Assembly: GCA_964016885.1 (NCBI GenBank)
Contig: OZ024753.1
Coordinates: 46,004,001-46,068,000 of the forward strand
Direction of reading: 5' to 3'
Origin: Eledone cirrhosa
Lineage: Eukaryota
Length of the DNA: 64,000 nt
The notes beneath the pieces were generated by a model that saw nothing but the letters and a program-made list of their open reading frames with translations, was not told the DNA's origin and did not search any database. Positions 2,694-46,577 of the stretch are shown here, piece after piece. The stretch's first letter is position 1. Each line of letters starts with the position of its first letter. The position numbers and the translations under genes are program-made.

Positions 2694-2738
<45 letters not shown>
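2157..2738. repeat. (TA)n microsatellite flanking the 5' end of the Penelope-like element
   Basis: Interrupted TA run directly abutting the pLTR. Confidence 0.95.
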
Positions 2739-3029
2739 AAATAGGTCCTCAGTAATATTATTCGGATGAAATGACAGTAAATAATAACATTGAAATATTG
2801 AATGGCTGCATAACTAAAAGTTTGTAGATAGCTGTTTTAGGTTATGTAACTGTTATAGAAACACGTGTCAATAAATTCCTTTCAACTAAACTGTATCCAT
2901 TCAAATCTTTCTATTTTTCTCCGGATTACTTTTGGAACTACAACTGGAACCGTCGAGCAAACTCTACGTGAGCTGATAATCTACTGTGTGTAATATTTAT
3001 ATTACAACACAACGGAAAATACTGTATAT
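2738..3029 (+). repeat. 5' pLTR of the PLE
   Basis: Matches 6219-6510 (offset 3481) with a few substitutions, e.g. cggatga vs ctgatga and ggattac vs ggactac. Confidence 0.95.
2758..2874 (+). ncRNA. Hammerhead ribozyme in the 5' pLTR with a mutated core (probably inactive)
   Basis: Same fold as 6239-6355, but the core reads CGGATGA (2763-2769). GAAACACGTGTC is at 2858-2869. Confidence 0.65.
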
Positions 3030-3078
3030 TTACCTCCTGTAAAGTCGAGCAACCCACACAGCAAACGCAACCACAACA

Positions 3079-5364
3079 ATGGAAAAACACTACCTGGATA
3101 TGTCACTCAAAAACATACCAACCCAAGGTAGAAAGGAATATTTATTGAGCATGATTCAAAAAACTAATGAATTCATTCGACGTGTCAGGTGGAAAACGCT
3201 CCACTATGATAGAAGCCGTATGAACTCAACATTAGAAAGTGGTGTAAACAACAAATTCGGTTTTAGGACTTGTAAAAACCCACCCACCAACCCACTATTA
3301 GATGCATTTGAGCAGGACCTTATGAACTTAATCCTTAAAATTAAATTCAAAGGACGCAACACCAACAGCAAATTACAGAAAGATATAAAAAAAACTACTG
3401 GACGACCTTAAAAACACCAAAGGAATTGTAGTAAAAGCGGACAAAACATCAAACCTGTACACTATGGATTGCACTACATACAACAACTTCATTCGAAAAG
3501 AATTACATAAAAAATATAGAAAAACGAGTGAAGTAACCCTTAAGCACATCAATGATGAGGCATGCGAAATAGTGAAAAATCTCGGAATCGAAGATAGGAC
3601 AGGATTACAAGGTAAACTTTGATAATGACCCTAAAATTAGATTAATCTGCCCCTCTAAATCAGATATAGGTAAAATAAGCAAATATATCTTAGATAGAAT
3701 CATCCCCCAAATTAAGGCTAAGGTTAACATTAAACTCTGGGGGAAGACCCAAGAAGCAATAAGATGGTTTAATAGCATTAGCAATAAGAATAAATCTAAG
3801 TTTATCCAGTTTGATATCGATGAATATTACTCATCGATATCACCTGAAACTTTGAATAGAGCCATTAAGTTTGCTAAGGATAACTCTGACCTTACAAACG
3901 ATGAAATTAAGATTATATTAGAAGCTAGGAAAACTATAGTCAAATTTGAGAACAGTTATTGGGTACGTAAAGATAGACCCTCTAACTTTGACATAACAAT
4001 GGGCTCTAACGATTCGGCGGAAATAACTGATATTGTGGGGTTATTTATCGCCTTTAGACTCCAGGAAAAATTCAGCAATCTCCACGGCGGAATATACCGC
4101 GACGATGTTCTCCTCCTAGCTAAAAACCTTAATAACCAAAAACTAGAAAAACTACGCAAAGATATAAGAAAACTACTACTCGAAATAGGACTAACTATAA
4201 CATATGAATACAACCTTAAAGTAGTTAACTTCCTGGATGTCACACTCAATTTAAACTCTGGTTTGATTAAACCGTTTCATAAATTGAATGAAAATCTCAA
4301 ATACGTAAATGTTGGGTCTAACCACCCCATCTCTATAATTAAATCTATCCCTAAAAATATTTCCCTTAGAATCTCGGGTCTATCTTCTAACATACAAGTA
4401 TTTAAGGAACACGCCGAGTACTACGATAACGCCCTTAGTAAAGCAGGCTACCTCAACAAAATAGAGTACATAGATGGGAACAATCAAAACACCCAAAATA
4501 AATCCCACATAGGTAGATATAATAACACAACACCAAACCACACTTACTACCATAGTATGCACACCAGTAAACCAACAAACAAAACTAATAGAAAGCGATG
4601 CAAAGAGTACTTATGGTATAACCCCGAATACAATAGCTCCATTAGTACAAATTTACCAGTACTCTTCTTTAAAATAATTAAAAGACATTTTCCCACATCA
4701 CACAAATACCACAAAATCCTAAACCCTACCACTATAAGACTGTCATACTCTACAGCGTTAAACCTTGAACAACACATAAAAAAGATCAATACTAGAAGGT
4801 TAAACGAAAACACTAAGAACTTAAGTACAAAGAACTCAAAAAAAAACAGTAGACAATACACTACAGAACATAAATAAACCACACCTAAGTTCGTCCGCAA
4901 TACTACTCCAGAGAAAACCCAACGTACACAACTGTAACTGCACCTATCCTGACAACTGCCCCCTCGGCAATAACTGCCTGGAAAAAAATATTATTTATAA
5001 GTGTACCATTAAATCCGGAGGCAACGAGTGGTATTACGTGGGATCAACGGCAACATCGTTTAAATCTCGATTGTATAGGCATTCTTACTCAATAAAACAC
5101 CAGAGCCAAAGAAATGTAACAACTTTAGCAGAAAAAGCTTGGACGCTCAGGGATAGCAATCAAAACTTTACCCTAAAATGGGAAAAATTAGCTAAAACCC
5201 AAAGCTTTTCCAGGAGCCAAAATTTCTGCAAATTGTGTAATCTTGAGATTTATTACATAATCACACACAAGAAGAAACTGCTGAATAACAGAAATGAACG
5301 AACATTATTCTGCCGTCACAGAACTAAAACCCTTTTTTCCCACTACAAGCCGAATATTACATAA
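3079..5364 (+). pseudogene. PLE reverse transcriptase-GIY-YIG endonuclease polyprotein with three frame breaks
   Basis: Reconstructed motifs: MSLKNIP, VVKADKTSNLY, KIRLICPSKSDIGKISK, FIQFDIDEYYSSI, ITMGS, IYRDD, VNFLDV, CNCTYPDNCPLGNNC, NIIY...YYVG, FKSR...H, CKLCNLE, CRHR. Frame breaks are at the A8 run (3387-3394), at ~3600 (apparent small deletion) and at the A9 run (4838-4846). Confidence 0.92.
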
Positions 5365-5631
5365 AAGAGGGACATCCCCCAACTATATAAACCTTAATCT
5401 AGTTAGAAAAATATAAAAACAATCTCTTCTCAACATATATTAATAACCTTAAATTACCATACTAATAATGAAAAGATATGCTGATGAGAATAGGTACAAA
5501 TATGCGATAATGAATGTGTCTAAAAACGTCCATAAGTATGTATATATATGTGAAAATGTATATAAATAAGTAAATATATATATATGTTTGATGTGTATAG
5601 TTAGATGTAAGTGTATTCATGTATTAAAGTG

Positions 5632-5676
<45 letters not shown>

Positions 5677-6218
5677 ATGTATGTATGTGTATATGGATGT
5701 GTATGTATGTGTATGGGTGTACACATGGACTAGAGTATGTATGTATATATGTGTGTGTCTATACGTGTGTATATAAAGATAAGTTGAGTATGAAAATGTA
5801 TACACATGAGCGCGTATGTATGTACATGAATACATGTGTGTATATATATGTGTATGCATGTGTATATATATGTAAGTATGAATATGTGAATTGTGAGTAT
5901 ATGTATTTTGTAGAGGTGTGCAAATATATTTGTGTGTGAATGCGTGGGTGAAAGGATACGTACACTTGAAAGAAAAATTTAAGTCTGAATGTTAATTAAG
6001 TGCAAACACAAAACCAACCACGCATATCTTTACTATCTCTAATCCTTCTATAGATTTAGAAAAATAACCAATAATATATTCTATAAAAAATGTCAAAACA
6101 ACAGATGGGAATCTAATTACTCACTGCCACCAAGAATTCTCACTGCTATCGAAAAACCACTCCTTCAACTATTCTTCTAACAACTTCACCCCTCCCTCCT
6201 AATATTCTCTATAAAAAC

Positions 6219-6510
6219 TAAATAGGTCCTCAGTAATATTATTCTGATGAAATGACAGTAAATAATAACATTGAAATATTGAATGTCTGCATAACTAAAA
6301 GTTTGTAGATAGCTGTTTTAGGTTATGTAACTGTTATGGAAACACGTGTCAATAAATTCCTTTCAACTAAACTGTATCCATTCAAATCTTTCTATTTTTC
6401 TCCGGACTACTTTTGGAACTACAACTGGAACCGTCGAGCAAACTCTACGTGAGCTGATAATCTACTGTGTGTAATATTTATATTACAACACAACGGAAAA
6501 TACTGTATAT
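6219..6510 (+). repeat. 3' pLTR of the PLE
   Basis: Direct repeat of 2738-3029, running into (TA)n. Confidence 0.95.
6239..6355 (+). ncRNA. Type I hammerhead ribozyme with extended stem II in the 3' pLTR
   Basis: Stem I ttatt/aataa; CTGATGA 6244-6250; stem II atgacagt (6252-6259) / actgttat (6330-6337) enclosing an inner hairpin; GAAA 6339-6342; palindromic stem III ACACGTGT; GUC cleavage triplet ending at 6350. Confidence 0.75.
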
Positions 6511-7180: not shown

Positions 7181-7400
7181 ATATATATATATATATAAAT
7201 ATAATATAAATATAATATATATATATAATATATATATATAATATATATATATATATAATATATGTATATATATATAATATATATATACAGTATTTTCCGT
7301 TGTGTTGTAATATAAATATTACACACAGTAGATTATCAGCTCACGTAGAGTTTGCTCGACGGTTCCAGTTGTAGTTCCAAAAGTAGTCCGGAGAAAAATA
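6393..7400. repeat. ~1-kb palindrome: 3' part of the pLTR plus (TA)n and its inverted copy
   Basis: 7283-7400 is the reverse complement of 6393-6510. Landmark pairs sum to 13793, including C6529/G7264 inside the TA tract. Confidence 0.9.
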
Positions 7401-12055
<4,655 letters not shown>

Positions 12056-25173: not shown

Positions 25174-25239
25174 TATTTTATTATATATATTTCAAGGGCA
25201 ACCAAGGCAAATTATGGTGCGCTTTCATCAGATAAAATA
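25174..25239 (-). ncRNA. Minimal type I hammerhead ribozyme
   Basis: Minus strand reads tattttat CTGATGA aagcgcacca-taatttgcct-tggttgccctt GAAA tatata TA ataaaata. Stem I is a perfect 8 bp, stem II pairs, and stem III is palindromic. Confidence 0.8.
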
Positions 25240-46410: not shown

Positions 46411-46577
46411 AAAGATGAGTATTGACGTACATGGGAGTCGAACCCACACCTTCGGTTATCCAGACTGTGCTACCATTACACCGTTACACAACATGATATG
46501 TTGGTGTAATGGTAGCACAGTGGTCTGGATAACCAAAGGTGTGGGTTCGACTCCTATGTACGTCAATACTCATCTTT
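46411..46577. repeat. Inverted repeat (72/75-bp arms) made of a tRNA-like sequence
   Basis: 46411-46482 is the reverse complement of 46503-46577, with about 3 substitutions and a 3-nt indel; 20-nt spacer. Confidence 0.92.
46495..46565 (+). pseudogene. tRNA-like cloverleaf (tRNA pseudogene or SINE head), nominal anticodon GGA
   Basis: A box tggtgtaatgg, D stem gtgt/gcac, anticodon stem tggt/acca with loop ctggata, T arm gtggg-ttcgact-cctat, weak acceptor stem gatatgt/gtacgtc. Confidence 0.6.

Follow-up and report, generated by a model that had tools for sequence, protein, structure and literature searches.

The minimal hammerheads of metazoan Penelope-like elements (PLEs) lie in the pLTRs, combine a helix I of 4-5 bp with a basal helix II of 7-8 bp and a palindromic helix III, and are expected to act as dimers with low activity (PMC4209133; statements on this and the other papers cited refer to the accessible parts of each). 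Hydra-clade PLEs are marked by the motifs RWK and DKT, a CxCX5C linker, CxxC and CxH, a C-terminal endonuclease and (TA)n targets, and their units are 'generally <3 kb', which is a tendency only. Their hammerheads are of type I with a palindromic helix III and frequently a non-canonical 10.1/11.1 pair; those tabulated have a helix II of 3-7 bp with loops of 3-10 nt (PMC8557442). The longest helix II in the accessible tables, 9 bp with a 34-nt loop, is that of PLE-X1_sMoe, which is not a Hydra element (PMC8557442). In Poseidon_Ac, two fixed 3' ends (a tail) lie past the ribozyme and the template is apparently uncut at the ribozyme; cleavage by the PAc hammerhead requires its protein, and the predominant template is uncut RNA (PMC11167929). 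Mismatches at the base of helix II are found in the axolotl HHR_Amex2 (PMC7229834) and in natural U10.1·U11.1 variants (PMC3088659). A hammerhead with a U·U-based helix II still cleaves (PMC7229834), and among 10.1/11.1 mismatches U·U is reportedly tolerated best (PMC3088659).

The locus described here is part of a 64,000-nt stretch of DNA that was analysed as a whole (the window). Within it, a young Hydra-clade PLE carries a type I hammerhead motif in its pLTR, and the motif is family-wide. The pLTR site, the short helix I, the length of the basal helix II, the palindromic helix III, the expected dimer action and low activity, the two fixed 3' ends past an apparently uncut ribozyme and the mismatch at the helix II base all recur in the systems above. 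In contrast to the hammerheads of PMC4209133, the motif has no G10.1-C11.1 pair, and its helix II extends as a predicted rod of 33-35 bp with conserved internal loops, the helix II domain of the family being 88-92 nt long. Unlike in Poseidon_Ac, where the hammerhead overlaps the ORF start and a long helix II is not described in the accessible text, the tail is ~112 nt long and both ends lie ahead of the ORF. Whereas HHR_Amex2 and the U10.1·U11.1 variants combine U·U with a short helix II and loop-loop contacts, A·A or A·G is found here.

No description of a 70-92-nt helix II in PLE hammerheads was found in the literature searched; the alignments of Lünse et al. 2017 may contain some. What appears to be new is the long twin-loop rod on helix II; the PLE hammerhead system is known already, and the function of the rod is what we infer. 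Our main reading, with a probability of roughly 0.6, is a Hydra-clade PLE type I hammerhead with an unbranched 33-35-bp rod and two conserved 2x1 loops, which likely cuts weakly, as a dimer and helped by protein, the rod likely being a protein dock. On their own, PLE hammerheads are poor at cutting; one depends on its protein, and copies come from RNA that is uncut at the site. A helix II module that is both conserved and mutable, in a young family with intact ORFs, in which natural one-loop forms (88 nt) stand beside two-loop forms (91-92 nt), would be a direct handle on the role of these hammerheads. In the genome G000, thousands of hammerhead motifs escape short-stem descriptors and Rfam.

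The element and its terminal repeats

The coordinates of the features are given in Table 1. The 5' and 3' repeats are 98.3% identical over 295 nt at an offset of 3,481 nt, which is the unit length in the window and thus above the usual 3 kb. The two pLTRs differ at four positions (2764, 2805, 2857 and 2926). Relative to the intact copy L046, the ORF has indels near 3387, 3605 (38 nt missing) and 4838.

Table 1 Features of the element in the window and of the rod in family O
Feature	Position	Strand	Remarks
5' pLTR, 5'-truncated upstream unit abutting (TA)n	2738..3027	+	direct repeat of 6219-6508
5' hammerhead copy, U4G core change and rod change at 2805	2763..2869	+	
ORF, broken: RT and C-terminal GIY-YIG-type endonuclease, Hydra-clade PLE	3079..5364	+	
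3' UTR with TA/TG microsatellite stretches	5365..6218	+	common to other copies
Putative pLTR promoter: TATA-like 6210-6216, initiator-like TCAGT 6230-6234	6210..6234	+	from sequence
3' pLTR plus tail	6219..6508	+	copy ends at 6395 or ~6504-6510
Helix I, 5' strand	6239..6243	+	pairs with 6351-6355; five A-U pairs, weak
Core 5' half CUGAUGA	6244..6250	+	U4 = U 79, C 5, G 1 of 85 copies
Helix II domain, predicted unbranched rod	6251..6338	+	33 bp, -24.2 kcal/mol, z -4.6
Proximal 2x1 loop	6270..6272	+	A6270-U6271 opposite G6321, closed by U6272-A6320
Distal 2x1 loop site	6282..6284	+	A6282-A6283 / G6312, U6284-A6311
Core 3' half GAA and palindromic helix III ACACGUGU	6339..6350	+	predicted cut after C6350
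Inverted pLTR-end fragment (from 6386-6510), 125 nt, no hammerhead	7283..7407	-	98.4% identity
Family O rod, both loops	L164:1453-1526	-	
Family O rod, both loops	L164:2620-2693	+	

The RT motifs RVRWK and ADKT are present in L046 as well as in the window, and inspection of the C-terminal endonuclease, the linker and the CxxC and CxH words revealed CNCTYPDNC, YYVG, CKLC and CRH. A Pfam scan of the window's ORF fragments gave no GIY-YIG match. Insertion into (TA)n and partial pLTR tandems with inversions are further Hydra-clade traits of the element. The Hydra-clade label rests on these protein and target features; the trees described below comprise G000 families, database proteins and metagenome loci. 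An assignment to Naiad was ruled out by the C-terminal position of the endonuclease.

The window's RT fragment has 97 scored places in G000 at 97-100% identity, and all 20 fetched sister loci, which were chosen for long frames, have frames of 785-798 aa. At least four Hydra-like families in G000 have many near-identical long open frames, which suggests several recent expansions. Among 102 mapped 3' ends of the window's family, 44 fall at 6395 and 52 at ~6504-6510. Words of the form CTCC...GTCGAGCAA occur at 3034-3051 and 6400-6441, within a few bases after each family 3' end; they may form a bulged hairpin marking RT start sites, a form that local folding gave at 3034 only. Similar GCTCC...TTGAGC words precede the ORFs of families B, C and D. 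The inverted fragment downstream faces the element's 3' end, with ~780 nt of (TA)n between them. At L015:1460-1574, a 5'-truncated copy opens with tandem 11-nt repeats of the 3' arm of the rod, which suggests RT slippage.

With TATA-like and initiator-like words upstream of helix I, the likely transcription start lies just ahead of the motif. A similar pair is known from the A. vaga pLTR (PMC3846280). In family E, both words were found in 8 of 30 copies, with a spacing of 31-32 nt in five of these.

Hammerhead core and predicted helix II rod

A preliminary description of the window had placed a pLTR hammerhead with all type I core elements at this locus, and the core words, helix I and C17 were indeed recovered at its positions. 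The type I consensus (CUGANGA, GAA, A15.1-U16.1, H17) is found at 6244-6250, 6339-6342 and 6349-6350, with GAA at 6339-6341, the palindrome ACACGUGU at 6342-6349 and C17 at 6350. The core-plus-insert start has 2,396 exact matches in G000, a lower bound on the copies since one common variant lies outside the pattern, and the reversed-pattern control has none; the motif is therefore not a chance occurrence. The palindrome suits dimers, as had been proposed, and gives an intermolecular self-duplex of 8 bp (-10.3 kcal/mol). The double-hammerhead fold reaches -56.1 kcal/mol versus -60.3 for the cofold minimum, i.e. 4 kcal/mol above the dimer minimum. In the predicted monomer ensemble, helices I and III are absent (helix I pair probability 0.0) and helix II is stable. 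Also borne out was the expectation that the oversized helix II escapes standard models: with the core halves 88 nt apart, Rfam gave no hammerhead match at E<=10 on 6150-6480.

At the base of helix II, the reported mismatch A6251/G6338 is present, but only a minority of copies have G there: of 85, 77 have A at position 11.1, 5 have G and 3 have another base, so that the family mostly has A·A. The canonical 10.1-11.1 pair (usually G-C), a preference rather than a strict requirement, is replaced by A·A in 77 and A·G in 5 of the 85. An unpaired 10.1/11.1 position is ordinary in Hydra elements, and in the window's family it is a family trait. Hammerheads were found in 49 of 76 metagenome Hydra-like loci, with a domain of 10-25 nt in all; their first and last helix II domain bases are U·U in 22, G-C in 17 and A·A in one. 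The same 10.1/11.1 pattern is found in the accessible part of File S2 of PMC8557442. Since U·U is the mismatch reported as best tolerated (PMC3088659), A·A may be nearly inactive.

The core change CGGAUGA noted earlier for the 5' copy is located at 2763-2769 and is a sporadic mutation in a copy with a broken ORF. U4G occurs in one of 85 sampled copies and in two genome-wide, and U4A in one genome-wide; an on/off pair by design was ruled out by this rarity. The copy had been suggested as a natural control, for which it is poorly suited because of its second change in the rod (2805) and the difference at 11.1; its rod reaches -19.1 versus about -24 kcal/mol. A measured effect of U4G was not found in the literature searched.

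The 8-bp basal helix II of the preliminary description (6252-6259/6330-6337) was retained in the folding analysis, whereas the branched inner hairpin was not. Forced pairs for a branched insert reach -17.6 kcal/mol at best versus -24.2 for the unbranched form, and the inner pairs have a probability of 0.00 in the 6225-6400 ensemble. The basal helix is instead followed by helices 6265-6269/6322-6326, 6271-6278/6314-6321 and 6284-6291/6304-6311 and then the tip, with A6251·G6338 unpaired; the inner rod helices have probabilities of 0.78-1.0 in the same ensemble. The reverse strand of the window's rod folds at -8.3 kcal/mol (RNAfold). Six intact variants of the window's family (A) have z values of -3.2 to -5.8, and -23 to -29 kcal/mol in sense versus -8 to -16 in reverse. 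The older 92-nt form (35 bp, -29.0 kcal/mol) folds better than the 88-nt form of the window. The helix II insert is thus predicted to be a straight, unbranched rod of 33-35 bp.

The rods of families A (91-92 nt), E, E2, H and O have two 2x1 loops, each with a 5' A-N opposite G and a closing U-A pair, 11-12 nt or about one helical turn apart. The proximal module is present in all 22 distinct 91-92-nt sequences of family A and also in E, E2, H and O. In the window's 88-nt subfamily, the outer helix of the distal loop is lost through a 3-nt deletion after 6310. Among distinct sequences, the strict double motif occurs in 22/22 of the 91-92-nt and 0/8 of the 88-nt forms of A, in 11/30 of E, 7/13 of E2, 1/8 of F and 0/2 of H; it is absent from the reverse complements and found in 0-2% of shuffles. 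A graded loop score exceeds that of shuffles in A (91-92 nt), E, E2, H and O, is marginal in F (18.6 vs 17.5±1.1) and marginal at most in G, and is not clearly above shuffles in G, I, J, K, L, M and N. The motif was derived from A and E once these had been inspected, which leaves H, O and F as its only independent tests. Family O was a blind match of a rod-only model (E 0.67); its rod has both loops, and the hammerhead core around it is decayed. For the outer pairs, A, H and O use A-U,C-G, whereas E, E2 and 3-4 of 8 F sequences use G-C,U-A. The layout is reminiscent of S-turn-like modules.

The 88-nt form was found in 17 of 20 loci with intact ORFs, a sample biased to the window's protein, and in 3 of 24 complete copies of an unbiased sample. 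This subfamily, with one loop lost, looks recently active, and from its frequency among intact loci the distal loop is either dispensable or decaying.

The insert could also be read as a spliceosomal intron (6258-6321, GT...AG) within helix II, splicing giving a compact hammerhead and the intron-retaining RNA being copied. There is a GT at 6258 and a TTTT(C)AG at 6321, helix II without these 64 nt is a clean stem of 9 bp closed by a 4-nt loop (-8.2 kcal/mol), and PLEs retain introns, that of D. virilis ending at helix I (PMC4209133). However, the donor is GTTGAT in the older subfamily, the position is not shared by E, F and H, both splice sites are buried in helices, and the loop module accounts for the AG; this module is present twice, and its outer pairs flip from AC/GT to GT/AC between families. 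No precisely intron-less copy stands against 2,396 with the insert, a count of little weight since PLEs keep introns. Splicing therefore seems most improbable to us. In the contigs of six sequencing runs of unknown kind, neither joints nor pile-ups of starts or ends were seen; these contigs are uninformative on expression or splicing. Acceptor-like sites before helix I (13 of 44) came from a loose rule without control and were not used.

Sister families and covariation

A rod of 74-92 nt is kept in families A, H, E, E2 and O. The pattern of the sister family E has 1,091 matches in G000 (control 0), and a generic long-helix-II pattern has 3,854 (control 19), 35 loci being fetched for follow-up among the matches listed. 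In RT trees, A groups with H (SH-aLRT 99) and A+H with E/E2 (99), and A+E reaches 98 in a separate tree; both trees are quick searches. RT identity among A, H and E/E2 is 50-62%. One tree row (L251), a foreign RT beside an E hammerhead, was disregarded. Other Hydra-like families of G000 have helix II domains of 13, 20 and 36 nt. On the simplest reading, the rod was gained once, in the ancestor of A, H and E, with F and G unplaced.

Covariation among copies, which the preliminary description had named as a check, was analysed in 43 E/E2 rods. Here 93% of cells are paired and double changes affect 9 of 22 pairs. The double-change cells number 70 versus 28 in shuffles, a level reached by 0/500 shuffles, though such cells count related copies rather than events and are inflated by kinship; the number of pairs with a double change, by contrast, is reached by 41/500 shuffles. 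The strand asymmetry of family E is small (-15.8 vs -14.4).

At the sequence level, the rods of A and E are weakly similar (z 0.1-2.8), and RNAalifold gave no consensus for their joint alignment. A filtered search of 33 sources with a covariance model of the family-E rod yielded nothing at E<=10; with filters off, only chance-level matches were obtained and the rods of A, H, F and I were not recovered. On the 76 metagenome loci, the model gave one chance-level match.

It is conceivable that the rod is tolerated ballast: any helix II length would be accepted, the insert would stem from a fold-back duplication, selection would act on pairing only and the loops would have no ligand. Inversions are made constantly in PLE reverse transcription, helix II domains range from 13 to 92 nt across the families of G000, the youngest subfamily lost part of the module and several long-insert families are devoid of the motif. 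On the other hand, the loop bases and the U-A closing pairs are fixed while their neighbours covary, in families whose rods can barely be aligned, and length is confined to 74-92 nt in A, H, E, E2 and O. We regard ballast as unlikely and favor a rod that likely serves as a protein dock.

Further hammerhead-like motifs were observed in other families. The long-insert families L266-L269, L273-L277 and L291 of G000 (69-90 nt) are without the twin-loop module, and some may be branched. Family B (L146 and L150 3' UTR; 713-aa ORF) has, by eye, a hammerhead-like motif in which the core reads CAGAAGA and helix III is longer. In family C (830-832 aa), the 10.1/11.1 position is occupied by A·G, above which helix II is compact, with 7-8 bp (L153:1188, + strand). 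In family E, the cleavage site, if cut, is GUU.

Proposed action of the motif

Transcription driven by the pLTR would place the motif at the 5' end of the RNA and a second one in the 3' pLTR. Two motif copies, on one partial-tandem RNA or on two RNAs, could then pair via ACACGUGU to form helix III, in line with PMC4209133. The weak helix I and the purine-purine 10.1/11.1 pair would keep intrinsic activity low, and slow cutting is predicted from the weak helix I and A·A. Reverse transcription would start on RNA left uncut at the ribozyme, 45 or ~155 nt past the cut site. Of 57 mapped 5' breakpoints, none starts at 6351 and one is at 6347, and clustering at the cut site or the rod base was not seen. 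Since most copies read through the cut site and no breakpoint starts at 6351, the template is probably uncut there or religated.

These data also bear on the view that the ribozyme is dead or irrelevant and its structure kept for RT recruitment, translation control or as a DNA-level internal promoter. Such a view would fit A·A at 10.1/11.1, the five A-U pairs of helix I, the lack of helix III in the monomer, the missing breakpoint pile-up, the GUU site of family E and the finding that PAc insertion in vitro is not blocked by hammerhead mutants (PMC11167929). It is nevertheless very unlikely, as many diverged families have retained the core, the palindrome and helix I. U4 purines occur in 3 copies versus at least 2,396, a rarity that weighs little in a young family.

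For a hammerhead that cuts weakly and as a dimer, a protein, most simply the element's own RT-endonuclease, might bind the loops and time the cut, which is the most speculative step. The element's own protein is the first candidate because the PAc hammerhead needs its protein. The usual contact between loop II and helix I is presumably out of reach for the tip of a long helix II; conserved unpaired bases spaced by one turn would fit a protein site better, and a protein-binding role of the rod is plausible. Tentatively, the rod of this Hydra subclade may make the motif a protein-gated hammerhead, a natural counterpart of engineered helix-II aptazymes: binding of the element's own RT-endonuclease to the two sequence-specific loops would switch or time self-cleavage versus reverse transcription.

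Elsewhere in the window, the best 150 of 322 rows of an Rfam scan include microsatellite-driven miRNA matches and one tRNA. The tRNA-like match (46495-46565, + strand) scores 40.9 bits, above the Rfam gathering score, and is a candidate gene or SINE head. Two more type I hammerhead-like motifs from other families have their cores at 25231 (- strand) and 49038 (+ strand), with helix II domains of 31-32 nt and a helix I of 8 bp.
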